Shown in pieces: positions 30,997 to 48,472 of a DNA stretch of 64,000 nt. The DNA is taken from contig OZ250165.1 in the NCBI GenBank assembly GCA_965238005.1, positions 1,920,001 to 1,984,000 on the forward strand, given 5' to 3'. The notes beneath the pieces are model-generated. The model was not told the origin of the DNA, did not search any database, and was given only the letters and a program-made list of their open reading frames with translations. The position numbers were made by a program, and so were the translations under genes. This DNA comes from Longimicrobiales bacterium. GTDB lineage: Bacteria > Gemmatimonadota > Gemmatimonadetes > Longimicrobiales > Gaopeijiaceae. Within the stretch, counting starts at the first letter, position 1. Each line of letters starts with the position of its first letter.

Positions 30997-31461
30997 CGCA
31001 ATCTGCCAGACGCGAGACAACGGCTGCCAGCATGTCGATGAGTTATTTGCAAATGTTGTGGATCAGTGGATTTGATCAGGCAGCGTCTTCGCTAGCGATG
31101 AGGTGAACTCCGTCCACAAAGGCGACGCCCTGCATTCTGTCCGTTGGTGGACTTCTAGATATCAAACGCCAGTCCGAAGCTCAACAAGCCTCGCATACAG
31201 GCAGGCTTTATCGGCAGCCATCTCATGGGTGTAGAGGATTTTGGTGGGAGTCCCCGGTACGTCGCAATCGGTGAAACCGCCCATTCCCAGAGTGTATTGC
31301 TCACCCTCGATTGCGAGGATTTTGGTCTGAAGCGGTTCGGAGGCGATGGTCACCTTTTCTCCACACGGAGGGTCGTTCGGAGCGTCGGGAATTTCATCGT
31401 CCCCCGGTTTCTCTGGACAGTAGATTGGCAAAGAGAGCGGGTCCAGAGAGAAAGGGACGTG

Positions 31462-31821
31462 ATGGCCCAGAAGCCGAGGGAAAAGAAGGCGACCGAAGGT
31501 CGTGAGAAGGTACCCGAGCGGTGGAGCGCACAGCATAAGACGGAGGTGGTGCTGCGCCTGCTGCGGGGGGAGGATCTGGTGGAGGTCAGCCGCGAGGTGC
31601 AGGTCTCACCACCGGAGTTGGAGGAATGGCGGCGGGTGTTTCTGGAGACCGGTCAGCAGGGGCTGAGGCGCCGGGGCCGGGACCCTGGAGAACGAGAGCT
31701 GACCCGGACCCAGGCGAAGCTGGGAGAGTTGACGATGCGACTGGAGCTTGCGAGAGAGCTCCTGGAAAAAAGGGGGTACGGGGACGAGCTACGGACGCTC
31801 TTGAAGCGTGGACGCGAGTGA
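31462..31821 (+). CDS. IS3-family OrfA (HTH plus coiled coil)
   Basis: RWSAQHKTEVVLRLLRGEDL...WRRVFL; A6G run at 31766-31772. Confidence 0.88.
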   Translation: MAQKPREKKATEGREKVPERWSAQHKTEVVLRLLRGEDLVEVSREVQVSPPELEEWRRVFLETGQQGLRRRGRDPGERELTRTQAKLGELTMRLELARELLEKRGYGDELRTLLKRGRE

Positions 31822-32702
31822 GTCCGGGGACCGGGCGGCCCTACCCTCTGACGATGATCTGCGAGGCCTGGCGGGTGGGGCGCTCGACGGTCTATGCGGC
31901 CCGGGATCGAGAAGAGAGCGAGGGGCCGGCAGAGCCGAAGAAACGAGGACCGAAGACGAAGCTGAGCGACGAGGAGTTGGTAGAGGAGATCCGACAGGTG
32001 CTGAAGCAGAGCGACTTCCTGGGCGAGGGTCATCGAAAGGTGAGGGCGCGCCTGAGGCCGAAGGGGATCCATGTGGGCAAGAACCGCGTGCTCAGGCTGA
32101 TGCGGGAGAATGGGCTGCTGGCCCCTGTACGACGCGGGAAGCATCCGCATGGGGACCGGAGCCACAGTGGCCGGATCACGACGGACGTGCCGAACGAGCT
32201 GTGGGGCACGGACGCGACGCGGTTCTACACGAAGGAGGATGGGTGGTGCTGGTTTTTCGTGGCGGTGGATCACTGCGTCACGGACGTGGTGGGCTGGCAC
32301 GTGGCGAAGAAGGGCGATCGGTGGGCAGCGCTCGAGCCGATCCGCCAGGGCGTACGGACCCACATGGACGACTACGCGCCCAAGATCGCTCTGGGGCTCG
32401 GCCTACGGCACGACTGGGGACCGCAGTACACGGCGCATCAGTTCCAGGGGGAGCTGGCCTGGCTCGGGATCCGCTCGACGGCCTCGTACGTGGGAGAGCC
32501 GGAGTGCAACGGCGTCGCAGAGCGCTTCATGCGGACGCTGAAGGAGGAGTGCTTGTACCTCCACGACTTCAAGAGTCTCGAGGAGGCCAGACAGGAGATC
32601 GACGCGTTTATCGAACGCTACAACCGCGGGTGGCTCCTAGAGCGGCATGGGTATCGGACCCCGGCCCAGGTCCGTCAGGAGCTCACCCTGAAGGCGGCTT
32701 GA
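31818..32702 (+). CDS. IS3-family OrfB DDE transposase
   Basis: WGTDAT, RHDWGPQY, NGVAERFMRTLKEE; lies in the -1 frame with GTGA overlap to orfA. Confidence 0.9.
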   Translation: MSPGTGRPYPLTMICEAWRVGRSTVYAARDREESEGPAEPKKRGPKTKLSDEELVEEIRQVLKQSDFLGEGHRKVRARLRPKGIHVGKNRVLRLMRENGLLAPVRRGKHPHGDRSHSGRITTDVPNELWGTDATRFYTKEDGWCWFFVAVDHCVTDVVGWHVAKKGDRWAALEPIRQGVRTHMDDYAPKIALGLGLRHDWGPQYTAHQFQGELAWLGIRSTASYVGEPECNGVAERFMRTLKEECLYLHDFKSLEEARQEIDAFIERYNRGWLLERHGYRTPAQVRQELTLKAA

Positions 32703-33399
32703 TTAGGCCGCCGACTTGTCCAGCAAACCGGAACCGGTACAGTTTAGCGTCATTGACGGTTTCAACGAGGGTTATGGTGTACTGGAGCGCCGCATTAACG
32801 CTCCCGGAAAACGTAATAGTGAGCGGAACGTTCTCCATCGGGTTGTAATCGGCCAGGTCAACATTAGTGACGCTGTTATAGTGTGTGAATGTTCCCAGCT
32901 TGAACGATGTTCCATCGGTGGGCATGTTGGTGCCGTAGACTCCTTCAAAACCGAATCCGCTCTGGCCGGCAAAATCAAGACAAGGCGGAGGGTCATCGTT
33001 TACGTCCTGAGCCCCATAACGGATTTGGTTTTCGTCGTTTGTCGCCTGGTTCTGAATGCCCGGGTCGGTGTCGCTGATGGCGCTCGGGCTACCACCCGGC
33101 CCCGTCGCCCAGCGGTCACAGTTGGCGCCTTGTCCATCGGTTCCTTGGTCGGGGATTCCCCAGACGCCGTCAATGTCGACGGCGAGACGGTCTTGGGTGG
33201 CGGCCGATAGCAGGGGCGCCTCGGAATCGCCCTCGCTCGCCGTGGCCACGGCCGCCGACCACACCAGCGCCACGATCAACCACGTTCGTGACATGCGTCT
33301 TCTCCCTGGAAAAAGATGGCGAATCTCAATTTATGAGAGAGTATATGCACTTCTGAATCACGGCAACATTTGTATTTCTGCTGCGGGTACGATGCTAAC

Positions 33400-34066
33400 C
33401 GGGCTAGCGCTACGCGAGCCGCCACCGCAAGAGCAAGCCCCCGGGGCGCCCGACTCGGGGGGCCTGACTTTTCTCCACCGATTCGGCTCTTCGCTGAACA
33501 TGCATGGCGTCGTTGCCCCGAACGCAAAGCTTCGTGCCGCCGTCGTAGCGATCGGTCGGCCTGGAGTCGAGAGTCCGGAGGTTGTTGCGGGGGGCGAGAT
33601 GAAGATTCTCGCGTTTCTCACCGACCCGCCTGTCGTTTCGAGAATCCTCCTGCACCTCGACCTGCACCATCTACCCCCGCCCCTCTCGCCCGCGCGAGGG
33701 CCGCCCCGAGGCGACTTCCTGCTGGATCAGACGTCGGGGTTCGATGCGCTGAGGCCGAGCCCGTTCCCGAGTTCGTGTTTGATCAGTCGCTACCCGAGAG
33801 GTTCGAGGACTGAGGCCGCGGACGGCGCAAGAACCCTGATTCGCCTCACGGCGTGACCGAATACGACCCGACACGCCCCGGGAAATTTCCGCCTATCCAC
33901 GCATCTCGGTGGCCCATCCGAAGTATCGCGTCGATTTGAGCCATCACGAGGCGCTCAGGACCTCGGCGCGGGAACCACAGTCACGAGTCTTTCCTCTCCG
34001 GGATCTCACCGCCGGCCCACCCTACCTGGGATGTTGCACCTATAGCGCGATTGGAATACCTATCCC
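33400..34066 (+). mobile_element. Internally deleted IS91/ISCR remnant ending in an oriIS-like sequence
   Basis: FLHRFGSSLNMH, GVVAPNAKLR, GGEMKILAFLTDPPVVSRIL...ARGPP; GCGATTGGAATACCTATCCC resembles the ISCR oriIS end. Confidence 0.75.
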
Positions 34067-34129
34067 TAACGATCCGAAGTGAGATTGCCCGCTGGGCCAG
34101 GCCTGCCCGCCCTGTCCATGGAGATGGCC

Positions 34130-36640
34130 ATGAATGCGATTCGCATTGTCACCCGAGTCGGCTTGAGGACGTGCTCCACTACGTTTATTGCCCTCCTTGT
34201 CCTGTTCGGATGCCGCGGCAACTCTAGTGACGTGGGCATGGGCGAAGTCGTCCTCGCCGAGTACCCCAGCGTGGATGCCAGCTTTCTCTCGGCCCTCGAG
34301 TGGCGGTTCGTGGGGCCGTACCGTGGAGGGCGTGTCGTTGCGGTGGCCGGAGTTCCCGACGACCCCCTCGTCTACTATTTCGGCGCTGCCCACGGCGGAG
34401 TGTGGAAGACCACCGATGCCGGAAGGTATTGGCGGAACGTGTCGGGCGGCTTCTTCAAGTTCCCTTCGGTGGGTGCCCTGGACGTGTCACCCTCCGATCC
34501 CGATGTCATTTTCGCGGGGACGGGTGAGGGGCTTCAACGACAATTCATCTCGCCCGGAGACGGGGTCTACAAATCCACCGACGGAGGAGACACGTGGACC
34601 AACGTGGGCCTTCGGGAGACCCGGCACATCGCCAAGCTCCGTATTCATCCAACCAATCCCGATATCGTGTACGTGGCGGCCATGGGGGACATGTTCGGCC
34701 CAAACCCGGATCGCGGCATCTATCGAACCACGGATGGAGGCGAGACGTGGGAACGCATCCTGTATAAGGGCGAGACTACCGGTGCGGTGGATCTGTCTAT
34801 TGATCCCACGAACCCGAGGGTGATCATCGCATCCCTGAACCACCACGTGACGTACCCGTGGGACGAGGAGAGCGGCGGCCCCACCACCGGCCTTTTCAAG
34901 ACCACAGATGGCGGGGACACCTGGACGGACATCACCCGCAACCCCGGTATGCCAGAGGGGCTGATCGGGAAGATCGGTATATCCATCTCACCGGCGCGCT
35001 CCAACCGGGTGTATGCGTTCATCGAGGCTGACGAAGGCGAAGGCGGGATCTATAGTTCCGATGACGGCGCGTCCACCTGGCAGAGGACGCATCAAGACCC
35101 CGGCGAGATGGAGATCCCCAATTCATACAACCACATCACCGCCGACCCCCAGGATCCCGACGTCGTCTATATCCAGCCCATCACCGGTTTACTGAAGTCC
35201 ACGGACGCGGGCCGGACCTTCAAACGTGTACGCATGGAGAACTGGGACCCTCATGCGTTATGGATCGATCCAAACGACTCTCGCCGAATGATCGAAGGAG
35301 GGGACGGAGGGGCCTCGGTGACGTTGAACGGAGGTGAGTCCTGGTCGAGCCTCGAGAACCAGCCCACCGCAGACCTTCTCAGTCTGGCGGTGGACGACCA
35401 GGAGCCCTACTGGCTCTACGGCTCTCAGAACGACAACAGTCACATCGGGATTCCAAGTCGAACCGACGATCGGTCCATCGGATGGACGCACTACCTTCCC
35501 ATTCCGGCCGGCGAGGGCGGGCAGACGGCGGTGAAGCCCGACGGCAGCGTGGTCTATGCAAATGATAGGTCCAGGATGGTCCGTTTTGACCGGGAAACCG
35601 GGCAGGCTCCGCACATCAGCGTTTGGCCCGAGTGGGTGTTCGGAACGCCCACCAAAGACGTGAAGTACCGTTTCTACTACTCGTTCCCAGTGCTCCTCTC
35701 GCCGCACGATCCTGGCGTTCTCTACACGGCGGCCCAGTTCGTCTTCCGATCCACTGACGAAGGCAGCTCCTGGGACCAGATCAGTTCCGACCTCACGCGG
35801 AACCGCCAGGACGTGATGGGCGAAATATCCGGAGGGCCCATTAGCTCCAATGCGTCCTCGCTCTTTCACGTGAGTCTCATCCGGAGCCTTGCCGAGTCTC
35901 CCCTCCAAGAGGGGGAGCTCTGGGTGGGCACCGACGACAGTACCGTTCAGGTTTCGCGAGATGGTGGCCGCAATTGGCGCGACGTCTCGCCGCCGGATCT
36001 TCCGGAGTGGACCACGATCACGGCCATCGACGTATCTCCCCACCGGCGGGGGACGGTCTACATCTCCGGAGAACGGCACAGAGTGAGCGATCGCACGCCG
36101 TATCTCTACAAGACCACGGACTACGGCAGCACGTGGCAGCGGATCACGAACGGGATTCGGGAAAACGACTACTCGTGGGTCATCCGTGAGGATCCGGTGC
36201 GGCCGGGTCTCCTCTACGCGGGAACAGAAACTGGCGCGTACGTCTCCTTCGACGCCGGGGACTCCTGGCAGTCCCTACAGCGCAACCTGCCGCCGGTGAT
36301 CGTCATGCAGATGCTCGTGAAGGACGACGACCTGGTGGTGGCGACCCATGGGCGGGGCTTTTGGATCATGGATAACATCTCGTCCCTGCGTGGCATCACG
36401 CCCGAAGTCGCCTCGGCCCCGGTGCATCTGTTTGAAGTAGTCCCCGCTCTTCGTCAACTTCGGGGAGGGAGAGGGTCGACACAGACGGGACCTTCGGACG
36501 CAGCGAGGAACCCGCCGAGGGGGGTGATGATCGAATATTTCCTGGCCCAAGCATCCACCGGTGACGTGATGTTCACCATCACGGATGCGGGCGGCGAGAT
36601 CATCCAGCAATTCTCCAGCGGGTCGCAGGAACGCCGTAGC
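34130..36640 (+). pseudogene. BNR/VPS10-repeat glycosyl-hydrolase-like lipoprotein, N-terminal part (split by inversion)
   Basis: WRFVGPYRGGRV, repeated KSTDGGDTW Asp-boxes, ATHGRGFWI; continues in frame at 61221 on the minus strand. Confidence 0.88.
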
Positions 36641-36960
36641 TGTACCGTTTTCGGAGTAGCCCGCGGCGATCAGAAAGTCGACGTAGCGCTGGCACGCTGG
36701 GTGGAGCTCGGGGCCCAGATCGAGAGACCTGGCCTGGGCGTGCGCCTCGAACCAGTCGAGCTCGACGTCGAGGGCCGAGAGGCCCGCGATCAAGGCGCTC
36801 TGCCCCGGCCTGGGCGTCTTCGCGACCGTCAGGGACGCGAAGACGGCAAACCCTCTCACGAACAGGTAGTCCTGCACGAGCCAGCGGCTGAACGCATCCT
36901 CGGGCAGCGAGCCGTCGCCGACCGCGTTCAGGAACTCCGCGCGTGTACCGAGATCCCGCA
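36641..36960 (-). pseudogene. tenA: TenA-family (TenA_E-like) N-terminal half
   Basis: FLNAVGDGSLPEDAFSRWLVQDYLFV...ELDWF...YVDFL; bounded by IS IR scraps. Confidence 0.8.
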
Positions 36961-37008
36961 AACCGGAACCGGTTTAACTGTTCATGATAGCGTTGAGTCG
37001 ATGGTTAA

Positions 37009-37290
37009 GTGGAGCGGCCACGGCTCAGGCAACGAGGCCGAGGTGAGGGAGGCGAGGTCGAGGTGCCGGCGTACGAAGCGATGAGGAGGCCGGGGCGGCT
37101 GGCGGACCGGATGCTCGAGATCCTGATGGCTGGGGTCAGCACGCGGAAGTACGGCCGGGTGATCCCCGAGATGGCCGACACGGTGGGGGTGAGCAAGTCG
37201 GCGGTGAGCCGAGAGACGATCGAAGCCTCAGAGCGGGTGCTGAAGGAACTGATGGAACGGCGCCTGGACGCGTGGGACCTGCTGGTGATC
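37009..37290 (+). mobile_element. IS256-family transposase fragment
   Basis: ERPRLR, GVSTRKY, GVSKSAVSR, ERRLD. Confidence 0.8.
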
Positions 37291-37810
37291 CGGGGCATCG
37301 GAGAGAAGTTCGCGGCGAACCCTGTCGCCTGCAATCGCCGTCTAGGCGCCTTCGGGATTTATTCGGCATCCTGGGTAGGCCGGAGCGTCCTCGTGGCTTA
37401 GAGGGCCGTTATCGTCGCGTCCTTGTCTGGGCGAACGGCAAGCGTGCACATTGGCCTGGCAACGGCCATGGGTTCTTTGTCCCTCCAAGGACAGGAACGA
37501 GATGGATGGAAGTTCAGCAAGAAGGTCGGGTCGGTGAGCGCCGAGGACCTGATCGGCGCGGCGGCGGAGAGAGACGGATCGGCAAGGGACGCCGTATCTG
37601 GAACCGTCGCATCAATGAGGTTCCTGTAGAGGACGACCAGCGTGAGGCGGTTCGCCGTATAGGTTTCGGCCTCCATCCTGCCAGGTACCTGTCAGCCAGA
37701 GCGAACCTGGCACCCCCTCTAGGTAAAGCCGAAGCACGTCTCGGTGTGCCACGCGGCGCTCCCGCAGCCACCCTCCTTCCCAATCAGGACCAAAGCTTCA
37801 TGGATTGACG

Positions 37811-37839
37811 TTGGAGGGTCCACGGCGAACCCTCCAACC
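37811..37839 (-). terminator. Hairpin downstream of lemA
   Basis: TTGGAGGGT / ACCCTCCAA stem. Confidence 0.55.
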
Positions 37840-37851
37840 CGGCTTCTTCAA

Positions 37852-38406
37852 TCACTCAAAACTCACAGTTGGCACGTCTCGCACTTCTTCAGACGTGACT
37901 TCGAAATACTCTCGCGCCTCGGCGCCGGTCGCCTTGGCGGTCAGCACTTGCGGAAATCGCCGAATGAAACCGTTGTAGGTTCGCACAGCGTCATTGTAAT
38001 CCTGCCGCGCCGTTGCAATTCTGTTTTCGGTGCCTTCCAACTGAACTTGCAACTCCATGAAGTTCTGGTTCGAACGCAGTTCCGGGTATGCCTCGGATAT
38101 TACGAGCAGGCGTCCCAGCCCCTGCGTAAGAGACTGATTGGTTTCCGCCATCTGGCCCAGGTCTCCCGATTGGATTGCACCACCCAGGCGGGAACGAGCC
38201 TCGGCGATTGAAGTGAACACTTCCTCTTCTTGATCGGCGAAGCCCCGGACAGTTGCGACGAGATTGGGGATCAGATCAGAACGCCTCTGCAGTTGCACTT
38301 CTATCTGACTCTTGAATGCGTTGATCTCTTCGTCGTAGGTCTGAATGCGGTTGTAGCCGCAACCACTCAACGAGACGAGGGCCAATCCAATTACTACGCG
38401 CTTCAT
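37852..38406 (-). CDS. lemA: LemA family lipoprotein
   Basis: LSGCGYN lipobox, QRRSDLIPNLV, EAYPELRSNQNF, EGTENRI. Confidence 0.93.
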   Translation of the reverse strand: MKRVVIGLALVSLSGCGYNRIQTYDEEINAFKSQIEVQLQRRSDLIPNLVATVRGFADQEEEVFTSIAEARSRLGGAIQSGDLGQMAETNQSLTQGLGRLLVISEAYPELRSNQNFMELQVQLEGTENRIATARQDYNDAVRTYNGFIRRFPQVLTAKATGAEAREYFEVTSEEVRDVPTVSFE

Positions 38407-38441
38407 ATAATGATCTCCTTGGTAGAAAACCCCATCGGTCG

Positions 38442-39155
38442 TCATGCCTGGTCTACGTAGTTGGTCAACTTCTGTATTTCATCCACGTAGCGTGCGGCAA
38501 TAGGGTCGTCACTCCGGAGGGCTTTCACCTTGTCTCCCGCAATCTTGTCGACGACCCAACCAAAAGCTCCTACATCGAGGCCCGCGATACTCGCTGCCTG
38601 TTCAACAAGTCTTGCCGGCTTCGCCTCGGGCGTCTGACCTTCGAGACGCACCAGCGCCCTCATCAAAACGAAGAAAGTCGAAGCCGAGTCGATCAACAGT
38701 CGCGTCAAGGCTCTCCCGTTTGGGGCGAAAGCAGCGTGCTGAGCTCGCAGCTGTAGAAGTTTGCCCCGAACCTCCCGCTCCAATTCCTGGCGAAGGTCAT
38801 CCCTGTTAATGACAATCCCCTCGAACGGATCGGTTCCCGCAACGAGTTTGTGTGCTTCCCTCATATCCTCGATTTCGATTGGGAAGACGTCGGTCGATCC
38901 TTCCCATTCCACTCGCTCGAAAATAAGCGGGGCCGCATTTCCTTTCTTGACCCATGCAGCAAGTGATTTCTCGATCGGTCCAATCGCTTCGGTTGACGCG
39001 TCCTCAACCATCACCATGATGTTCACTTCCTGGTGCGCGGGTGCGTAACCGCCACGTATTGCCGTACCGAATAACATCATCGACTTCAGGTTTTCGCCCA
39101 GGTCGGTGGCGATCTGCGCTGCGACTTTTTCTGCCTGCTGTATCTTGTCCGCCAT
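38442..39155 (-). CDS. Nucleotidyltransferase-like protein of lemA/TPM loci
   Basis: LFGTAIRG, DVFPIEIEDM, LRQELERE; genomic context. Confidence 0.7.
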   Translation of the reverse strand: MADKIQQAEKVAAQIATDLGENLKSMMLFGTAIRGGYAPAHQEVNIMVMVEDASTEAIGPIEKSLAAWVKKGNAAPLIFERVEWEGSTDVFPIEIEDMREAHKLVAGTDPFEGIVINRDDLRQELEREVRGKLLQLRAQHAAFAPNGRALTRLLIDSASTFFVLMRALVRLEGQTPEAKPARLVEQAASIAGLDVGAFGWVVDKIAGDKVKALRSDDPIAARYVDEIQKLTNYVDQA

Positions 39156-39158
39156 TCT

Positions 39159-39929
39159 CTAAAAGCCCCCTGATGAGCCGCCACCACTGAAGCCACCTCC
39201 GCCTCCGAAACCGCCAAAACCGCCGCCGCCGAAGCCGCCACCGCCGAAGCCGCCACCGCCGTGGTAATGGCCTCCTCTTCCCCCGCTAAGCAACATGCCG
39301 AGCAGGAGCCACCGGCCCGATCCTCGTCCGCCGAATAGGAAGAACACGACAAGTAACAGCAGCCAGGAGTAGCTTACTCCTGTGCGCCCCGACGGCCGTC
39401 CTTGCGGGATCGGTCGAGCGGCCTGGCCCGTCAACGTCACACCGAATTCTTCGGCGTATTCTCGCGCGAGCAGCTGAACACCGACGGCGAGACCCTCGGC
39501 GTAGCTCCCTGATCTCGTCGCGGCTTCCCCAATGGCATCGCGAATCCGCAGGGTTTCAGCGTCCGTTATGAATCCTTCCGCGCCGCGCCCGGTGGATATT
39601 GCGAGATCGGCCGTGCCGTCCCCCGGCCGTTGACCCGGTACCAGCAGCAGAACCACTCCGGCATTGCTCGCCTGCGATCCCGCTCTCCGTTCTGCGCCCA
39701 CGCCCCACTGGCGTCCGATGTCACGAGCGACATCGATCGACGCTCGACCTTCCAGGTCCCGCAGAGTCACCACGGCGATTTCACCGCCTGTTTTCTGTTG
39801 GACCTCGGTTATCAGGGTTGTCATCGCCCCTTCAAGGCGTGAATCAATCAAGCCAGCGAAGTCGTTGACGTAGCCCTGTGGGGCCGGTATCTGCAGCTGA
39901 ACTGCTATGACCAGGACGTTGAGTAGCAT
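39159..39929 (-). CDS. TPM-domain protein with Gly-rich tail
   Basis: GYVNDFAG, EIAVVT, WGVG, TM helix, GGGFSGGGSSGGF. Confidence 0.88.
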   Translation of the reverse strand: MLLNVLVIAVQLQIPAPQGYVNDFAGLIDSRLEGAMTTLITEVQQKTGGEIAVVTLRDLEGRASIDVARDIGRQWGVGAERRAGSQASNAGVVLLLVPGQRPGDGTADLAISTGRGAEGFITDAETLRIRDAIGEAATRSGSYAEGLAVGVQLLAREYAEEFGVTLTGQAARPIPQGRPSGRTGVSYSWLLLLVVFFLFGGRGSGRWLLLGMLLSGGRGGHYHGGGGFGGGGFGGGGFGGFGGGGGFSGGGSSGGF

Positions 39930-40067
39930 CCGATAATTATAACCGTCCGTTGAACGCGCATCCTGCAATCCCGGCGTGATGTCGGAATGCAACACACCAC
40001 CTGAGGCCACCAAGTCGACAATACCCTTGTCGAGTCGGCTGATGCGACACCTCAGTCCACGACTTGA

Positions 40068-42273
40068 CTAACTGCCTAGCCATGCCTGCAGAAAGGCCTT
40101 GATCTGGTTCCCCCAAAGCATGCTCAGGAGTGCGACGGTGAGCAGAGCGGCCAGTAGGGAAACCAGGCCCACACGAGTCCAACGAAACGCGCCGTGTCCG
40201 GTCTGGCGTAGAAAGAGGGTGACCAGGTCGCGCCGTTCCTTGCGTACCCCTTCGGGCAAGTGGGGCGTGTGGCTGAAGAGGTAGCCGAGCCGTCGCGTCA
40301 TGTACATGCGGAAATTCACCGCCCAGCCGCACGCCTCCAACAGAGCGCTCATGTCCCGCTTGCGAAGCTTGTTCCAACCCGAAAGTGCACTGAACAGGGC
40401 CACCACCAGCAGCAGGGTCACCAAGACAAGGGCGGCGTTCAGAGGGTTGATCGTGGAAAGTGTGTCGAGCAGGTAGACCAGCGAGGAACCGACGGCTGCG
40501 AAGGCAATGCCGCCGGCCAGCACCAGGTCGCGCATGCCAGAGCCGGAAGGGGGTGCCGCTCCCGCCGACGGCACCTGGGCAGGCTGCTGGAGCGACTCGC
40601 CTTTTTCCATCTTCGTTGTGATCTCGGTGGTGGCCTTTTCCAGGTACCCGGCCCGGGTGCCTGCAAAGGCTTCAAGCTTCTCGGATAATAGCTCTTTGGC
40701 TTTCACAAAAGGCGATTTGATGGCCTCCCACAGGCTGATGGGGTTCTCGACCATATCCACCACTCGTGCGTCCCACTCCTTGCCCTGGAGGTCATAGAAG
40801 ATACCGCGCTTGCCGATTTCGATGGCCCCCTGGCCGCCACCCGTGAGGGCGGCGGCAATCTCGAAACTCCGGCGCTGCTCCTGGGAAACCAGTGATCTCG
40901 GCGTACACCAGGAACATTTTGCTGGCTTGGGCGATCTTCTTGTGCTCGGTGCGGTTTCGGACCTTCATTGTGAAGGCGAGTTCACGGCCGTCAATGATCA
41001 GGTTGCCCAATTCAAACAGGGCACGGCGCCTGGGGTCGTACAGCGCGGAGAAACTCACGAAGTTGTTGGCCAGTTCCAGGAGCCAGCGCTGGTACAGGGT
41101 GAGCTTCTCCAGGGCAGCCACTTGCTTCACCTCATCCTTCACCGCCAGATCCTCCAGCAGGAGCTGGAGAAGTTTTTTCTGAGCCGGACCATACAAATAT
41201 TCTTTCAGCGTGGTCTCACTCAGCTCACCTACGCCATCCGATGGCTTCTCCGCCTGCCACGCACAGTAGGGCTCGAAGATGGCCTTGACCCGCTGCCAGC
41301 CGATCCGCGTGAGAGTTTCGTGGGAGTCCGGCTGGGCACGGGCAAGGACCCGGTTTTGTAATTCGTCCATCTGATCCTGGTAGTACGGATTGACGGGGCC
41401 CTCCAAATTCAGCACGCCTTCAGCATTTGGCGTTTGCAGTGGCGCTTGCGCGAGCTGTCTTTCCGTGGCCCGGAGGTCGGAGCCGTCCAGGTTCTCGAGA
41501 GCTTGTTCACTCAGGCAGAACCGTTCGGCGGTGCGGGCATCGAGCTTGACCAGGTCGCACTGCCAGAAGAACTGATCGATCTTGGCATCGAATTCAGAGG
41601 TGAGCTCCACGGCGGCCGCCGTGTCGTCGCCCCAGGGCAGAATCCCTGCCGCGCCGTCATCTTCGGCGAGTGCCTTCCAGGCCAGATACTTCCTCGCACC
41701 ATCCAGGAATTGGCTCAGGTGACCTTCGTTGATGCCGTCTGCGCCACTTATATCCTTGGTACCGCCCACCTGCTCGAGTACGTCATTCGCCAACTGTGCG
41801 GCAGCCGGATCCGAAACGTGCTGGGGGGGGAGCACGCCGTCGCCGTTGGGGGAGGTCATCCCGTACGTATTTCGAAAGATGCGCACCTGTTCCAGGCCGA
41901 TCTCGTCCAGGTTCTCCACCTGCAGTTGTGCCAGGATATGGATCGCGGCTTCCTTGAGCTGCCGGCCCTCCTCGTGGCTGGTATCCAGGTCCGCGAGCTG
42001 CAGGACGTCTGAGGAAGCCGCCATTCGGTCGCGGTTTGCCATCATACGTAAGATCCATGTCACTGCCGCCCGCAAATGCTCGGCACGGATGGTCCCGCTG
42101 CCGTCCTGATTCAAGTACTCGAGGAACGCAGGATCGCACTGTAGGCTCTCGATCTGCACGCTGGTAGCGGCCCAGCGAGCTGGATGGAGCTGGCGGATGA
42201 AGGCAAGATCCTCCGCGCTCTCGATGCGCAGTTGGTGGATCCCGCCGTATTTTTGGAAGACCATGGGCTTCAT
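40068..42273 (-). CDS. Large uncharacterised protein with C-terminal TM helices; +1 frameshift at ~40887
   Basis: Two ORFs join by removing one T (GGTTTCCC), giving ...GKRGIFYDLQGKEWDARVVDMVENPISL... Confidence 0.65.
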
Positions 42274-42427
42274 AACGCACATTCTACTCTGTCGCAGGGA
42301 ATGTAAGCCAGCACGAGATCTGAACAGGTCAAAGTTATGGCTCAGGATAGGAAGTTGCTTTTCCCTTTCCTAAGTATCCCCTTCGTACTGGAGGCGTCCA
42401 GCCAGTGGGATGAGGGTACCGGTCCTG

Positions 42428-42752
42428 TGGCGAAGACCCAGGATCCGTGGTGGAACGGATGCGTGTTCTCGAGCCCGGTGCCTCCGACCGTGGCCCGGCG
42501 GACGTGCGCCACGGCGGTGGTGGCATGCGCCCGTTCGGCGACGCGAGAGAAGTGCTCTCCATAAAAGGCGGGCGAGGCCTGCTTCTCCACCTTGGGAGTG
42601 CCGTTCCGGTAGGTGGCGACGCCCCAGCCGTGGGCGTGCTCCCTTCCCGTGAGGTCTCCCTCCGCCTGAACGATGAGCGCGTTCTGAGCGTGTACCAGTG
42701 TGCACTCGACCTTGGTCTCTTCCGTCGCCCTGAACCCGTATAACCTGCACAT
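42428..42752 (-). pseudogene. Class II glutamine amidotransferase (YafJ/EgtC-like), N-terminal fragment
   Basis: MCRL start, HGWGV, AHVRRAT, NTHPF; truncated just before HNG. Confidence 0.8.
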
Positions 42753-42894
42753 GGATGTCGTCCTATCACTGAGCCACGAGGCATGCTCGAAGCGGCGTTC
42801 CGCGACGATCACGCCGTTGCGCTCAAGCCACCGGACCATCGGATACTCCGAGTTGAACGGCATGTTGACCGCCCGGTAGTGGCGTGTCTCGGAT

Positions 42895-45800
42895 TCAGTA
42901 GCCTACAACGGCGCTTGCGACTGCCCGGGGCTGTGGCTCCAGGGCGTAGACGTTGCGCTCGTAGTCCCGGTTGTAGGGTGAGATGTTCAGGGTCTCGCCG
43001 TCCACGACCAGGGTGGCACTGCCACCGGGGTCGAAGCCCATGGCGGTGCGCATGCCTCGCGCCCGCAGGATCTCCGCCATTTCCACGTGTGTGGCGCCGA
43101 CGGACTCGCGGATCCGGCCGTTGACGACCAGCACGGCGAGGTTTCCTTCGTCGTCGAGACCGATGGCGATCTTCGGCCCCCGCATGTCGAGGTAGTCGAG
43201 GCGTGCCGCCTGAGTCCGAATGGAATTCGACGTGGTCCAGCCCTCACCGTCCATGTCGATGCAGACCTCGCCGCCCGCGAGCAGCATCGGCCCGGCTTCG
43301 ATGGCGCTGGCGACCCCGGACAGGCCGTTGAGTTCGAGCGTGAGCTCCCGACCCTCGGTCCATCCTACGGGCAACTCTCCCTTGGGAAACGAGAACACCA
43401 GACCCACCGGGAGCACGGGCACGGCCTCGCCGGGGTTGGTCGAACGCATCTCCATGATCCGAGTACCCACCAAGCGAACGATGGTCCGACCGTCGCCCGG
43501 AAATGACTCACCGGCGTAGAGAAGATCGTAGAAACAGGGCGCTGGGCCGGGGGATGTCGGGTTGCGGCTCTCGGCGGGGAATTCGACGACGGCGCGGCCG
43601 AACCGGGCGCTCAGGCCCGACGCACAGCTGACCCGGCGGATGCCGAGCGATCGGTCTTCCGACACGACGAACGCCGGCTTGTCGAAGAGTGCCGGGCTGA
43701 GCATACGGCCTTGGGACACGATGAGACCGAGGGGCGAGCCGACGTACGATTCCGGTAGGCCGAGCTTGCCCACCAACTCGGCATTCAGGATATAGCCACC
43801 GTTCCAGGCGATCCGTGCTCGGCGGCGGGGCGATCGGTTGAACTTGCGAACGAACTCGGGAACCGTCTGGCTTCCCGCCTTGGCCGACAGGATCGAATAG
43901 CGCAGTCGACTGTCGGCGGCGACCCGCGCGATCACTCCCGACCAGGGACAACCATCCTCGTACACACCGTTGAGGCCCTCGGATTCGACGGGCCCTCGCC
44001 TCGACCGTTCCGACCGGCTCAGTCGCGAGAACACGACTTCGACGGGGGAGCCGCAATCCTCAGCATCCTCTCGTAGCGCGGTCAGGACCGTGTCTCTGCC
44101 CATCCGCTTGCACAGCCGTCGAAAACGCCGGCTGCGAAGCGTGTCACTCAGGGACTTCGCAGTCTGCACCGGTGTCGGATAGGCCAGGGCGCAGCGGAGT
44201 CCGCCAGGAGCCCACTGCACGAAGCCAGTGCCGATCGGAATGCCGAGGATGTTGGCGGTCAGGGGATCGTCTGCCCGACCGACGTGGAAGCGCTCGAGCG
44301 CGACTCCGTCGGTGGTCATCGCTGCCTGGGCGCACAGGGCGATGACGAATCCCTTCCGCTGACGAATCTCAACAAGGCTCCGAAGTGCGGCCTCGCCGAG
44401 TTGCCTGAAGTCGATCCCTACGGAGAGCTGACTGCTCCCGACGACCCGGCAGATCCCCTTATCGTGTAGCAGCTGGAGTTCCTTGTTGGCACCGCTCTTC
44501 AAGTGTGCCTCGAGGGAGGCGGCGTCCAACCCGCCAGGGAGCGCTTCCTCGCGCTCGATGATGGTGATCGGGGTAAGACGGTCCAGGCGGCTCGGCGGGG
44601 TGGCAGAGAGGTTCTCGTGTATCCCAAGACCAAGACGAATCCGGGCTGTCTGGAGCACGAAGACCTCGAGCTCGTGCTCGGTGCGATCACCCAGGAAGAG
44701 CGCGAACGGCACGTTCTCGCTCAAGCGCGCCAGCATGGGCTTACGGTCATCGATCCTGAGCGGCCCCCCGCAGCACCGGGCGACCATCTGGTTCCAGTTG
44801 GCCAGCTGGTGTGCGATCTCTTCCGTCACCGGGGACGATTCCCACGGACCGAACATCTCGTGATCGAGCAGTACGATCACCGCGGTGAGCTCCTGTGGCG
44901 TCAATTCTCGGTACCGGTAATGCCAGCGATTGCGGTGCCGGTACGCTAGCGAATGATCGATGCGAATCGGCATCTCGCCGGCACGGATCAGAAACAAGCT
45001 GTCGACCCTGTTGAAGAACTCGACTTCATCCAAGGGGTCGAGGCACGTGACGCGGCTCCGACTGGCCACCAACCCGCGAGCGAAGGCGTAGGCCATGCCG
45101 CGATTACGCTGCTCCTCGACGCGGAAGTAGCTGGGGTCGATCAGCGACTTGAGCATCAACATGAAGCCCATGCGCCCAAAGCCAGGGAGATACTCGCGGC
45201 GCCTCGTCGCGAGCAGCCCGGCGAGACTTGGCCCCGGGGCACGGATCCGGTCGGCGAATCTGTCGAAGGCCGCGCCAGCCTTGGCGATCGCGGATTCGCT
45301 CGAACCCAGCTGGTGGTGCAACCGACGCAAGAAGCCTTCCAGATCACGGGCCAGCCCCTGCAAGCTGAATCTTCTCTGGATGACCCTGCGGTTGTGCCGG
45401 TTGACCTCCGAGAGTTTCTCCGGAGCGAGGAGGCACTCCCGCACCTCAGCAATTACCTCGGACTCGAGTCGCCACCCTTTGAACATGCGCACGTCCAGAC
45501 GGTCCTCACGGGCCAGGTTCTCTCCGATGACAGCGGCGAAGACCTCCTCTGGTTCGTAGCGCCGCGTGAGGATCGGGACGCCGCACGCCGCTGACTCGAT
45601 GATCGGCAGGCCACGACCCTCGGCCTCGCTCGGCAACACGACGAGCGTCGAGATGTTGTAGAGCACAGTTTAGCGCCCCCGGTTTCTCTGGACAGTAGAT
45701 TGGCAAAGAGAGCGGGTCCAGAGAGAAAGGGACGTGATGGCCCAGAAGCCGAGGGAAAAGAAGGCGACCGAAGGTCGTGAGAAGGTACCCGAGCGGTGGA

Positions 45801-48393
45801 GCGCACAGCATAAGACGGAGGTGGTGCTGCGCCTGCTGCGGGGGGAGGATCTGGTGGAGGTCAGCCGCGAGGTGCAGGTCTCACCACCGGAGTTGGAGGA
45901 ATGGCGGCGGGTGTTTCTGGAGACCGGTCAGCAGGGGCTGAGGCGCCGGGGCCGGGACCCTGGAGAACGAGAGCTGACCCGGACCCAGGCGAAGCTGGGA
46001 GAGTTGACGATGCGACTGGAGCTTGCGAGAGAGCTCCTGGAAAAAAGGGGGTACGGGGACGAGCTACGGACGCTCTTGAAGCGTGGACGCGAGTGAGTCC
46101 GGGGACCGGGCGGCCCTACCCTCTGACGATGATCTGCGAGGCCTGGCGGGTGGGGCGCTCGACGGTCTATGCGGCCCGGGATCGAGAAGAGAGCGAGGGG
46201 CCGGCAGAGCCGAAGAAACGAGGACCGAAGACGAAGCTGAGCGACGAGGAGTTGGTAGAGGAGATCCGACAGGTGCTGAAGCAGAGCGACTTCCTGGGCG
46301 AGGGTCATCGAAAGGTGAGGGCGCGCCTGAGGCCGAAGGGGATCCATGTGGGCAAGAACCGCGTGCTCAGGCTGATGCGGGAGAATGGGCTGCTGGCCCC
46401 TGTACGACGCGGGAAGCATCCGCATGGGGACCGGAGCCACAGTGGCCGGATCACGACGGACGTGCCGAACGAGCTGTGGGGCACGGACGCGACGCGGTTC
46501 TACACGAAGGAGGATGGGTGGTGCTGGTTTTCGTGGCGGTGGATCACTGCGTCACGGACGTGGTGGGCTGGCACGTGGCGAAGAAGGGCGATCGGTGGGC
46601 AGCGCTCGAGCCGATCCGCCAGGGCGTACGGACCCACATGGACGACTACGCGCCCAAGATCGCTCTGGGGCTCGGCCTACGGCACGACTGGGGACCGCAG
46701 TACACGGCGCATCAGTTCCAGGGGGAGCTGGCCTGGCTCGGGATCCGCTCGACGGCCTCGTACGTGGGAGAGCCGGAGTGCAACGGCGTCGCAGAGCGCT
46801 TCATGCGGACGCTGAAGGAGGAGTGCTTGTACCTCCACGACTTCAAGAGTCTCGAGGAGGCCAGACAGGAGATCGACGCGTTTATCGAACGCTACAACCG
46901 CGGGTGGCTCCTAGAGCGGCATGGGTATCGGACCCCGGCCCAGGTCCGTCAGGAGCTCACCCTGAAGGCGGCTTGATTAGGCCGCCGACTTGTCCAGCAA
47001 ACCGGAACCGGTACTCCGGTATCTCGATCGGTCGGTCGTAGCGTTCTCGATACGAAGGGTGGTCGAATTCGCTGAACAGCAGTGCGAGGTAGATCCGGGA
47101 CCGAATCGACTCGTCGACCTTCTGCACGAGCCGGGCGAAGTCGCGAACCAGCTTCTCGAGGTACTTGTCGTTGCCAGTAGCGACCGGACCGGAGATGAGC
47201 AGCGTGAGCTTCCGCGACTTGTCGGCCCGCAAGGCCGCGGCAAAATCGCTGTCGGCCAACAGGCTGGCGATCAGGGTGAAGTTGAACTCGATTCGTTTCC
47301 GCGCGAGGATCCGTGTCGGCTGCAACAGAACCATGTTGTTGCCGACGAAGTCGACTTGGGACTGATTCTTCGCGGCGATCAGGATCGGGCGGCGGGAGTC
47401 TGGCGCGAGCAGGCCCTTCTCGATAACGTCCGCGGCGGCGACAGCCTGCAGGCGCGTTCGAGTTCCCGTGAGAATCTCACACAACTGGTGCCACACCTCC
47501 TTCGTCTGGCCCCGATCCATGGGCGTGTAGCGATCCACGTCGATACCCGTGCAGATCTCACAGACGTTGGCCGGATTGAGTCCGAATCGTTCGCTGATAG
47601 AGTCCGCCTGTTTGGAGTTGATGCAGACTGTGAGCCAGCTTCGGGCATCCCAGGGGTACAGCACCTCGATCAGTGAAAACACCTCGCCCACGTGGACGTT
47701 GGTGAAGAAGTGATCTCGCGGTCCACGCGGGAGGCCCAGGACCTCGCGATCGATCTCGCTGTGCCCGCTCTCCCAGTAGAAGTCGTGGCAGTTGTTGATC
47801 ACGGGGACGCGGAGGTGCTCGGAGATCAGAACCGTTGCCAGGGCGAGGGCGGGATTGCCCGGGTTGGAGTTCACGTTGACCAGGTAGAGCAGTTGGATGT
47901 CGTTCGCCTCGACAACTCGCCCCAGTCGCTCGCAGAGCTCGAGAACCGCTTCCCAGAACCTCCGGATCAGCTTGTTGTACAGGGGGCTGCCACGTTCGAG
48001 TCTGCGACCGAAGAAGCTGCGATACAGCGGCCAGCGGTCGAAACCGTCCATCGCATCGATCTGGTGCCACGGCGACTCGGGATCGATGATGCTCTCCGTC
48101 AGTTCGGCGAACTCGCCTGCGATGTAGTGGATTCTGGCGCCTCGTAGCAACGCGGCGAACGTACGCGCGTACTTGGCGACCTCCATCGTCACCCCATCGA
48201 CTCCGTAGTTGAACGTCACGAACGCGACCCCTCGTGCGACACGACGCTTGAACTCCGCGAAGTCGCTCTCGACAGCGATGCCCGCCGGCCGATTCTCTCG
48301 CAAGCGGTCGATGAGCAGGCCGAGATCGAACCAGGTCTCGACATTCTCGGCGCGCAGGTCCGAGATCATCCGTTCGGTACGGGGGTGGGCCAT
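42895..48393 (-). pseudogene. ~1382-aa GT4 glycosyltransferase - unknown domain - phosphodiester glycosidase (NAGPA-like) fusion, interrupted by IS3 copy 2
   Basis: DGVTMEVAKY, HDFYWE, PTRILARKRIE, EGRGLPIIES; C-terminal WNGGY, AGPMLL, GPKIAIG, VNGR, FDPGGSA; IS removal gives IPE-LYN in frame. Confidence 0.8.
45665..47014 (+). mobile_element. IS3-family element, copy 2 (permuted ends; orfB frameshifted at ~46530)
   Basis: Starts ACAG then IRL (45669-45694); ends ...CCGGTAC; orfA 45737-46096; T4 instead of T5 in orfB. Confidence 0.93.
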
Positions 48394-48429
48394 CGTGTTT
48401 TGGAGGCTCGGAGCTGGCAGCCTACCCTG

Positions 48430-48472
48430 GGGGGTAACTCAGGCGGAGACTAGGGGGTAACTCAGACGGAGA
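48430..48472. repeat. Tandem 20-bp duplication of the GT gene 3' end
   Basis: GGGGGTAACTCAG(G/A)CGGAGA twice, 23-bp period. Confidence 0.6.

Follow-up and report, generated by a model that had tools for sequence, protein, structure and literature searches.

Transposition by copy-out/paste-in forms the main mobility route of several large insertion sequence (IS) families, and in general its integration step is taken to be precise. What is known of an imprecise, one-ended side pathway comes mostly from IS911 and IS30 assays on plasmids. The portions cited here of the work on IS30 inverted repeat (IR) targeting and IS911 targeted insertion describe a single-strand transfer beside an IR, a nicked Holliday junction, branch migration, sequence conversion and dependence on RecG (PMC9333248, PMC7986276). 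By analogy, these targeted insertions appear to be the closest precedent for the two IS copies described below. As far as those portions go, the likeness would lie in an abutted IR-IR circle that reacts with a sequence resembling its own end, in a transposase that transfers one end, in a branched, Holliday-like intermediate that host functions (RecG, presumably RuvC) complete, converting sequence in the targeted repeat, and in a new IRR-IRL-type junction (right and left IR, respectively) left in the product. The reactions they report involve full-length IR targets, plasmids and overproduced or OrfA-free transposase. Here, unlike in those systems, the targets would be short, imperfect IRL look-alikes in chromosomal genes, unit-length permutations of the element are fixed in a natural genome, and irregular products are the majority (10/11 copies). 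IS2 offers a second comparison, and the cited sections of its description report an IRL that exceeds the IRR by 1 bp and does not act as donor in the first step, together with a junction spacer of 1 bp (PMC3299598).

The window, that is, the whole stretch of DNA analysed (64,000 nt, whose positions are used throughout), contains two copies of one element, which we call copy 1 (genome copy B) and copy 2 (genome copy E). The features of copy 1 and its surroundings are as follows.

31162-31400, minus strand: host gene interrupted by copy 1, downstream half (...DEIPDAPND...)
31392-31400, plus strand: host TTTCATCGT adjoining copy 1 on the left, similar to the IRL tip (compare TTTAGCG)
31401-32749, plus strand: IS copy 1, circularly permuted, from IRL position 8 to the IRR, then the spacer G and IRL positions 1-7
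31462-31821, plus strand: orfA, 119 aa, helix-turn-helix (HTH_28, HTH_Tnp_1)
31626-32702, plus strand: orfB reading frame, DDE / rve integrase core
31766-31772, plus strand: A6G slippery site, predicted to give a -1 frameshift into orfB, conserved in relatives
32706-32741, plus strand: IRR of copy 1, terminus ...AACCGGAACCGGTACA
32742-32742, plus strand: spacer G, the single base of the circle junction retained in copy 1
32743-32749, plus strand: displaced IRL tip TTTAGCG at the right end of copy 1
32750-33294, minus strand: host gene interrupted by copy 1, upstream half (...TLVETVND)

Judging from its sequence, the element belongs to the IS3 family, with a DDE (rve) transposase and overlapping orfA and orfB joined by a -1 frameshift motif. 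The IS3 family model NCBIfam NF033516 gives 179.4 bits against a cut-off of 160, and the transposase also matches Pfam rve, rve_2, rve_3 and HTH_21. The 5'-TG...CA-3' ends of the family are not found as such: the IRR ends in CA, and the IRL of this element and of every relative examined starts with TT. IS2, whose place in the family is accepted, has a comparable exception, according to the sections of its description cited here (PMC3299598). A duplication of 3-5 bp, as expected of the family, accompanies 14 of 18 copies in relatives and copy I of this genome, and is absent or ambiguous in the other 10 copies here. The element resembles what those sections report for IS2 in its A6G frameshift, an IRL one base longer and without a terminal CA, a one-base spacer and a donor-competent IRR (PMC3299598). 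It differs in that duplications are 4 bp in most relatives, not the 5 bp of IS2, and the IS2 TnpB model NF006918 gives 53.5 bits against a cut-off of 597, placing it outside the IS2 subgroup.

Copy 1 lacks the first 7 nt of the IRL at its left end, and those 7 nt stand after the IRR, as ...GGTACA-G-TTTAGCG. On the left, host ...TTTCATCGT is followed directly by CCCCCGGTTTC; on the right, ...CCGGTACA runs to 32741, then come the G at 32742, TTTAGCG at 32743-32749 and host TCATTGAC. The empty site is seen in a 748-nt Logan contig from a relative of about 92% identity, which joins window position 31391 to 32748 through 15 letters of its own and reads ...CAT, then CGTCATTGAC, with an identical joint in a second run. 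CATCGT to the left of copy 1 is thus host sequence, being present in this empty site, and the TTT beside it could be native or IS-derived. In the relative, 12 other letters replace the three T's, so the T's may not be native. A promoter-like TTGTCC-N16-TACAGT arrangement spans the retained junction at 32716-32743, as the preliminary description noted, but a junction promoter is not supported: the motif matches only 8/12 consensus positions, and a promoter scan of the retained junction with a threshold of 9/12 reported nothing.

Copy 2 is opened at a different place and interrupts a glycosyltransferase gene.

42895-45664, minus strand: glycosyltransferase gene interrupted by copy 2, C-terminal part
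45665-47014, plus strand: IS copy 2, consisting of ACAG, the full IRL, the body and the IRR without its last A (or CA)
45665-45668, plus strand: ACAG, the IRR tip ACA plus the spacer G, at the left of copy 2
45669-45675, plus strand: IRL tip TTTAGCG of copy 2
46528-46531, plus strand: T4 run in copy 2, against T5 in copy 1 (32253-32257)
47015-48393, minus strand: glycosyltransferase gene interrupted by copy 2, N-terminal part

Its left junction reads host ...GTAGAGC, then ACAG, TTTAGCG and CCCCCGG, and its right junction ...CCGGTAC (to 47014), then host TCCGG. The glycosyltransferase halves read ...RPIEIP and (V)LYNISTLVVLPSEAEGRG, and the second half enters the 172-position Pfam Glycos_transf_1 profile at position 89. 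The halves would rejoin in frame on removal of the copy; no empty site was found among the contigs listed. Taken with the left flank (TTGTAGAGC), the first bases to the right of copy 2 (TCCGGTATCTC) are similar to IRL positions 1-20.

The cores of the two copies (31401-32740 and 45676-47014) are 100% identical save for one T missing from a T-run; the resulting T4 run, which copy I also has, puts the orfB of copy 2 out of frame and may be a homopolymer sequencing error. The 9 nt AGTTTAGCG that follow the core in copy 1 are the 9 nt that precede it in copy 2, an agreement with a chance of about 4e-6, and both copies reconstruct one abutted IRR-G-IRL junction, which copy 1 retains and copy 2 keeps in part. 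The shared junction and identical core confirm the observation of the preliminary description that the two copies are different permutations of one IRR-G-IRL circle, and the analysis supports single insertions of that circle, opened at different, non-canonical places. Its statement that removing either copy restores the host sequence likewise holds, with duplicated or ambiguous bases amounting to 0-1 bp at copy 2 and 1-4 bp at copy 1. On its sequence context, TTTAGCG is the genuine IRL tip, because it heads related elements in other genera and 18/18 full copies in related metagenome-assembled genomes (MAGs). Outside IS copies it is rare, occurring 81 times in this genome versus about 312 expected from composition, and the IRL aligns from position 1 with the reverse complement of the IRR (TTTAGCG / TGTACCG), being 1 nt longer. 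Scanning 201 genomes of the order for IRR-N(0-8)-TTTAGCG gave 8 matches, a number similar to that for a reversed control pattern; only the match in this genome lies in an IS context, and three in a single genome (G128) lie in an unrelated repeat. A scan of metagenome contigs for the IRR-G-IRL junction gave 14 matches, all in unrelated sequence.

Such shifted ends could in principle be assembly or polishing artefacts at repeat boundaries, since the assembly is a single contig for which the sequencing technology is not given, the homopolymer differences between copies (T4/T5, C4/C5) could be read errors, and the comparison uses contigs rather than raw reads, with neither junction of copy 1 among the contig pieces listed. 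Both junctions of copy 2, however, are matched with 0 differences in contigs of two runs (X19 and X20) from two studies. Further, 9/9 copies of a control IS, which belongs to another family and lies in this assembly, end cleanly at identical positions with 8-bp duplications, a polishing error is implausible for the shift of a 7-nt tip plus ACAG, and a related fragment in genome G002 of the same genus likewise has the IRR followed by AGCGCCC (IRL positions 4-10). The repeat-collapse artefact against which the preliminary description advised a check is not borne out by the independent contigs or the control IS, and we regard an artefact as extremely unlikely.

We surveyed 11 full copies in this genome (A-K), at least 99.85% identical. 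Both tips are intact in only two of them (H and I), and canonical tips with a 4-bp duplication (CCCT) occur in I only, H having no duplication; the question whether most other copies are canonical is thus answered in the negative (1/11). Irregular insertion appears to be the habit of the element in this genome. Three left ends (B, D, G) lie at IRL position 8/9 and seven are precise at the IRL tip, with no spacer G ahead. Four right ends (A, C, D, E) stop at GGTA(C), 1-2 nt short, those of F, G and J lie 5-6 nt inside, and that of K lies 33 nt inside. The breakpoints are recurrent, near the junction and roughly symmetric, which argues for an element-specific cut over random breakage. IRL positions 4-14 differ among copies H, I, K, B, G and D, which are otherwise identical, as expected if the left end is rebuilt at insertion, and the left tips of B, G and K are mosaic. 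IRL-tip-like sequence flanks both sides of A (TATTTAGC twice), K (GGCTTTAGCCACGG twice) and G (CCGCCTTGAGCT / CCGCCTTTAGCT, with one G/T difference), and the left side only of B. Thus sequence conversion or mosaic ends, as well as a new IRR-IRL junction, both expected of IR-targeted insertion, are found here, the latter as the IRR-G-TTTAGCG kept by copy 1.

Part of this irregularity could have arisen later, from canonical insertions or tandem dimers altered by deletions, IS-mediated adjacent deletions or recombination between copies. Copy G lies between non-contiguous flanks, with an integrase gene fragment on one side only, so later rearrangement contributes at G; the perfect tips of H without a duplication, the IS-rich islands around H, F, G and K, and a 493-bp deletion at the K site in the congeneric genome G001 also fit such a history. 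For copy 1, however, it would need a dimer and two small deletions that restore the host to within 1-4 bases, the empty site of the relative has no pre-existing TTTAGCG, and the flanks of copy 2 would rejoin in frame. The matched 8-bp duplications in all nine control IS copies argue that recombination between copies is not rampant, and as a general account we find secondary rearrangement highly unlikely. Orthologous empty sites in two congeneric genomes (G001 and G002) were found for none of the A, B, C, E, F and H flanks, only the gene of K and one G flank being present there, and for this reason most native sites are inferred or assumed, those of A, C, D, F, H and J being assumptions.

Members of the same IS clade at 82-93% nucleotide identity (18 full copies in 4 MAGs of related Longimicrobiales) behave differently. 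They share the TTTAGCG tip, the GGTACA end, orfA and the A6G site with the element here, and they have both tips (TTTAGCG / GGTACA) intact in 18/18 copies with 3-5-bp duplications in 14/18. The non-canonical TT tip of the IRL, offered earlier as a cause of the off-register integration, is present in these well-behaved relatives as well, which speaks against that explanation. The relatives have A at IRL position 14 where the element here has G, and one IRR base differs (CCAGG vs CCAGC). A comparison of OrfA, the frameshift site and the start codon with the canonical relatives revealed no difference that accounts for the misbehavior, and residue differences in the fusion protein are uninterpretable, given the frameshifts in copy I and in the L047 group.

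The targets in this genome may also differ from those of the relatives. In a test of nine of the 11 copies (G and K having no reconstructable targets, and several native sites being assumed), reconstructed targets tended to resemble the IRL in the same orientation, with P = 0.012 for E, 0.004 for I, 0.053 for A and 0.10 for B. Fisher's combined P over the nine is 0.008, or 0.02 without A, and is driven by E, I, A and B, the targets of C, D, F, H and J showing no IRL-likeness (P 0.3-1.0). The same test for IRR-likeness gave P = 0.996, and the canonical targets of the relatives, unlike the combined result here, are not IRL-like (P = 0.22). IR-like sequence within 150 nt of the copies exceeded the random 95th percentile, weakly, only to the right of K (12.0) and to the left of J (11.5) and H (10.0), and unanchored similarity of the native sites to the IRs gave 0.52 for B and 0.07 for E.

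We give slightly less than an even chance to the reading that both copies in the window are real single insertions of a minicircle opened near its junction, probably by single-strand transfer of the right end and finished by the host. Single-end transfer plus host repair, the mechanism that the preliminary description had put forward, thus stays the best-fitting class. We infer the order of the chemical steps and the host factors as follows. The substrate would be the intermediate of copy-out, a double-stranded minicircle in which a single G lies between the abutted IRR and IRL. The transposase reaction would be one-ended, the right end being cut after GGTACA or GGTA and transferred next to or into a target resembling the element's own left repeat. 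For copy 1, the circle would have been opened inside the IRL between positions 5-9, leaving the IRL tip on the IRR, and for copy 2, on both strands at the IRR tip, leaving ACA-G on the IRL. Circle and target would be joined with almost no stagger (0-1 bp), compared with the 4-bp stagger of the relatives. The branched, Holliday-like intermediate would then be finished by host branch migration, resolution and repair, which may sometimes copy a few target bases into the IRL tip. The strand pair untouched by the transposase would yield exactly the structure seen in copy 1, consisting of the target pseudo-tip, the IS from position 8 through the IRR, the G, the tip and the target.

Copy 2 departs from the published IS911/IS30 scheme. 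Against branch migration as drawn there, its target is split at pseudo-IRL position 8/9 and its circle at the IRR tip, with AC (or A) at both ends; mirror-image branch migration, worked by hand for copy 2 and for F and J as mirrors of copy 1, did not reproduce the observed junctions. The internally truncated right ends of F, G, J and K speak against the right end as a precise initiating end, and the homology between the copy 1 target and the IRL tip is short (TTT..CG), with a P of 0.10 on its own. The seven precise IRL-tip left ends indicate that normal left-end cleavage also occurs.

Two other routes would use the same minicircle. The transposase, or a nuclease that attacks the distorted junction, could linearize it near that point, after which the ends would be nibbled or filled in and ligated by Ku/LigD into a chromosomal double-strand break. 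This end-joining capture fits the 0-2 nt microhomologies and 0-1 bp target stagger at both window copies, the variable truncation of right ends (1-2, 5-6 or 33 nt) and the lack of any duplication in most copies; the 1-2 nt IS duplication (AC) of copy 2 could be the fill-in of a staggered cut, and Ku is encoded in the genome (PF02735, 172 bits), within an open frame of 906 aa. Nibbling, however, would scatter the breakpoints, which instead recur (IRL 7|8 three times, GGTA| four times), and a coincident chromosomal break would be required for each of about 10 insertions. Neither the IRL-like targets nor the two-sided tip-like repeats of A, G and K are predicted by end joining, and the control IS is without sign of such events, so that we consider it unlikely.

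Alternatively, a nascent target strand could switch at a short match to the IRL tip, copy a nicked minicircle once and return at the same match, which would leave a permuted insert of unit length with mosaic junctions. Copy-choice replication of this kind reproduces copy 1 exactly, including the extra T, with departure after CATCGT and return on CG, and it agrees with the mosaic left ends of copies B, G and K. Strand switching at 2-4-bp microhomologies during copy-out has been proposed for the loss of ISApl1 and in the IS629/IEE system, in the parts of that study cited here (bioRxiv 10.1101/2023.06.07.543989). There too, as far as those parts describe it, the events are linked to copy-out, the microhomologies lie at or just inside the IS ends and boundaries shift by a few bases, but the model explains deletion of an IS from its donor site and not integration of a permuted unit. 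Essentially no microhomology exists at either junction of copy 2, and, with about 1350 positions available, copy-choice alone does not account for the clustering of switches a few bases from the junction, which makes it distinctly unlikely by itself; with a transposase nick added, it merges with the one-ended transfer favored above.

A search of the literature for "circularly permuted" together with insertion sequence, IS3 family or minicircle listed no paper that contains the phrase, which is only weak evidence that such copies are undescribed. The imprecise, one-ended side pathway appears in this natural genome as the dominant outcome, and unit-length circular permutations that still carry the circle junction are a natural record of the spacer G and of the sites at which the circle was opened. 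For IS annotation the finding is a caution, as tools that look for inverted repeats and duplications would set wrong boundaries for 10/11 copies or class them as partial. The IS2 description, in the sections cited here, reports direct-repeat flanks and mentions no permuted products (PMC3299598). The element and its 82-93% relatives form a matched pair, differing only at a single base in the IRL, a single base in the IRR and a few residues, so what enforces two-ended, in-register integration is directly testable. It is possible, if somewhat unlikely, that the lineage has shifted from two-ended paste-in with a 4-bp stagger to a mainly conservative, crossover-like integration of the minicircle at IRL-like sites, with one transposase transfer and resolution by the host. 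If so, the permuted copies would be a by-product, the left tip would be rebuilt from target DNA, and the process could be a natural route to new IS termini.

The genome containing the window (4.84 Mb, one contig, here G000:C1; window at 1920001-1984000) carries a 1.34-kb element that we found by repeat search and by reading the sequence as two direct copies in the window. The core common to both (31401-32740 and 45676-47014) differs only by one T in a T-run, and its predicted products identify it as an IS3-family insertion sequence (IS):

31401-32749: copy 1 (copy B of the genome)
31462-31821: orfA, with helix-turn-helix matches
31766-31772: A6G slippery site
orfB: rve DDE core, matching the NCBIfam model 'IS3 family transposase' at 179.4 bits (cut-off 160)
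45665-47014: copy 2 (copy E of the genome)

At copy 1, host sequence ...TTTCATCGT directly precedes the IS start CCCCCGGTTTC, and the right boundary reads ...CCGGTACA-G-TTTAGCG before host TCATTGAC. Copy 2 follows host ...GTAGAGC with ACAG-TTTAGCG-CCCCCGG and ends ...CCGGTAC ahead of host TCCGG. TTTAGCG is the true tip of the left inverted repeat (IRL): related elements in other genera begin with it, as does every one of the 18 full copies in related MAGs, and it aligns base for base with TGTACCG, the reverse complement of the right end. The two copies are therefore permutations of one circle, ...GGTACA-G-TTTAGCGCCCCC..., in which the right inverted repeat (IRR) and IRL abut across one G, and the boundaries and the genuine tip thus bear out the preliminary description.

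Contigs from two public runs, which belong to two studies and of which one run may be the source sample, match both junctions of copy 2 with zero differences (left, 42855-45698 and 42826-45698; right, 46986-48000). The contig pieces listed did not include copy 1's own junctions. In a relative (~92% identical), a 748-nt contig passes from window position 31391 to 32748 with 15 letters of its own in between, so the copy 1 site is empty in that relative, reading ...CAT then CGTCATTGAC without TTTAGCG; the same joint occurs in a second run. As a control, an IS of another family in the same assembly has identical ends and matched 8-bp duplications in 9 of 9 copies, so the assembly is sound at repeat boundaries, and IS-IS recombination has not generally scrambled flanks in this genome. 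This control IS (G000:C1:985916-987173 and 8 other sites; ends GAAGCTGTCCC...GGGACACCATC) also occurs in dozens of copies, about 100% identical, in G001 and G002, two congeneric genomes, a pattern suggestive of a recent burst, or of exchange, among members of the genus; some 190 nt present in the other copies are missing from the one at 985916. Elsewhere in the window, summed contig depth at 36924-37507 is very high (1532 in run X19 and 400 in run X22, against tens elsewhere) and three runs share a short-sided joint 36920->47119, probably reflecting a repeat or conserved segment common to other organisms in the samples. Two tandem 23-nt units (CTGGGGGGTAACTCAGGCGGAGA), 91% alike, lie at 48427-48472.

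Comparison of filled copy 1 (host CATCGT, IS to TTTAGCG, host TCATTGAC) with its empty site shows that the whole circle is present, opened between IRL positions 5 and 9, with one (T) to four (CGTC) host bases duplicated or ambiguous. The gene halves at copy 2 (...RPIEIP and LYNISTLVVLPSEAEGRG, the second starting at profile position 89 of 172) together form a glycosyltransferase domain and would rejoin in frame with no duplication or a single C. The earlier observation that removing either element restores its host with few extra bases thus holds. In copy 2 the opening of the circle lies at the tip of IRR, and A or AC stands at each end. For both copies, the cuts in the two strands nearly coincide, in the circle as well as in the target, a geometry of crossover or blunt joining and not of 4-bp-staggered DDE integration.

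Genome-wide, we found 11 near-full copies (A-K; at least 99.85% identical), with strikingly heterogeneous ends, and 3 right-end fragments. The tabulation of ends and flanks proposed in the preliminary description shows most copies to be irregular. TTTAGCG is present at the left end of 8 copies (preceded by ACAG in E, with a 3-nt internal deletion in K) and absent from B, D and G, which all begin at IRL position 8 or 9. On the right, B, H, I and each of the 3 fragments keep GGTACA; A, C, D and E stop at GGTA or GGTAC; F, G and J lack 5-6 nt, and K lacks 33 nt. Copy I alone is fully canonical (TTTAGCG...GGTACA between CCCT duplications); H has both tips intact without a duplication. IRL-tip-like strings flank A (TATTTAGC twice), G (CCGCCTTGAGCT and CCGCCTTTAGCT) and K (GGCTTTAGCCACGG twice) on both sides, and IRL positions 4-14 vary among copies that are identical elsewhere (I has CCCAC and H has CCCCCTTG, with further variants in K, B, G and D). 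Later rearrangement plays a part as well, because the flanks of copy G are non-contiguous. Abutting that copy on the left (G000:C1:995932-996380) is a truncated tyrosine-integrase gene (...LKAEKLAGLEKLKGSLWHAYRRKWA) with intact homologues in G001 and G002; the upstream part of the truncated gene does not lie beyond the IS. About 630 nt from copy H there is a 75-nt stretch, possibly a tRNA gene, that is 100% identical to G001, so this part of the genome may represent a genomic island.

Members of this IS clade are found at 82-93% nucleotide identity in four related Longimicrobiales MAGs. The TT, rather than TG, tip of the IRL had been offered as a possible cause of off-register insertion; however, these relatives share that tip and insert normally, with TTTAGCG...GGTACA intact in 18 of 18 full copies and duplications of 3-5 bp in 14 of the 18 (4 bp in 10 of those 14), so the tip alone is not the cause. 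Comparison with these relatives found orfA, its start codon and the A6G site conserved; in cis, the differences that can be seen are at IRL position 14, which is G here and A in the relatives, and at a single base of IRR. In G002 (L032, G002:C3:543100-544900, about 154-331), a related IS (83% identity) is represented by 133 nt of its right end, which terminates in ...CCGGTTCA and runs directly into AGCGCCC, IRL positions 4-10; this copy-1-like relic is a hint that the genus of the host could play a role. An isolated left-end piece of a diverged relative of the IS (TTTAGCGCACCCGATTTCCCTGGACAGTAGATTGGC...) lies at G000:C1:322983-323048.

The native site of copy 2 (TTGTAGAG-C before the split, TCCGGTATCTC after it) matches IRL positions 1-20 at 15 of 20 positions with one gap, in the orientation of the IS, and is split at pseudo-position 8/9. 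At the copy 1 site, TTTCATCG precedes the split, and CGGTTTC follows it at a distance of seven bases. We scored IRL-likeness by anchored alignment against 5000 random genomic windows for nine of the 11 copies, namely all but G and K, whose native sites could not be reconstructed. P was 0.004 for I, 0.012 for E, 0.053 for A, 0.10 for B and 0.3-1.0 for C, D, F, H and J (Fisher's combined P 0.008; 0.02 when A is dropped, its native site being an assumption). Scored in the same way for IRR-likeness, the sites gave P 0.996, and the relatives' canonical targets showed no IRL bias (P = 0.22). The likeness of the reconstructed targets to IRL is suggestive rather than decisive, several native sites being inferred with choices made in reconstruction.

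The IRR 12-mer AACCGGAACCGG occurs only 4 times outside IS copies, once 64-71 nt from copy K. Compared with G000:C1:979192-980991, G001 (L061, G001:C4, around 1505) has lost 493 bp of the amidohydrolase-like gene that copy K interrupts; the deletion is joined at a GGT microhomology, and on its right side it stops exactly where an IRR-like 12-mer (CCGGTTCCGGTT) lies within the host gene. Between the two window copies, a solo 20-mer at 36954-36973 (TCCCGCAAACCGGAACCGGT; 19/20 match to the IS right repeat) is followed by TTTAAC, resembling the IRL tip TTTAGC. The 20-mer, which could be the scar of an excision or of a junction, or else a natural target resembling an IR, lies a short way upstream of a gene on the minus strand (product start ...RDLGTRAEFLNAVGDGSLPEDAFSRWLVQDYLF). 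In another genome of the order (G128; L102, L108, L109), the three copies of a >1.5-kb repeat unrelated to the IS each contain, 29 nt in from the left boundary, CCGGTTCA-G-TTTAGCG, the IRR-G-IRL-tip string of related elements.

The mechanism literature was consulted in excerpts (an IS2 transpososome paper, an IS30 network paper, an IS6 review and an ISCth4 paper). According to the excerpts, ends in the IS3 family are asymmetric: in IS2 the first step uses IRR alone as donor, IRL exceeds IRR in length by 1 bp, and a 1-bp spacer separates the two at the junction (PMC3299598). Our element works somewhat alike, but falls outside the IS2 subgroup by its 4-bp duplications and a model score far below cut-off. 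Excerpts on IS911 'targeted' insertion and IS30 IR-targeting describe transfer of one circle-junction end next to an IR, after which a nicked Holliday junction branch-migrates and is resolved by the host, yielding sequence conversion and a new IR-IR junction (PMC9333248, PMC7986276). By analogy, copy 1 would arise by IRR transfer one base upstream of the target's pseudo-tip and junction migration across the 7-8-nt tip, and the two strands untouched by transposase would read host, pseudo-tip, IS position 8 to IRR, G, IS tip, host. The observed structure is this product bar one extra T. Copy-choice replication reproduces copy 1 too. Copy A (IRR, CTA, TTTAGC) looks like a direct strand-transfer product beside a tip-like target.

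The branch-migration scheme does not fit copy 2, which is better described as IRR transfer without migration: IRR would be cut after GGTA or GGTAC and transferred into pseudo-IRL position 8/9, with cuts in the opposite strands at the branch point, about 2 nt off. The genome encodes Ku (PF02735, 172 bits; L094, G000:C1:4193169-4193708), perhaps fused to another end-joining domain since it sits in a 906-aa open frame, and the presence of Ku makes host end joining a serious alternative for copy 2 and for those copies that lack duplications. IRR transfer does not account for the internal truncation seen at the right ends in F, G, J and K, and explains the insertions only in part. Although similar to IS911/IS30 targeted insertion, the pathway differs in its targets, which are short, imperfect look-alikes, and in its products, unit-length permutations that are fixed in the chromosome and form the majority class in this genome. 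The irregular insertion of this IS is of interest to transposition specialists.
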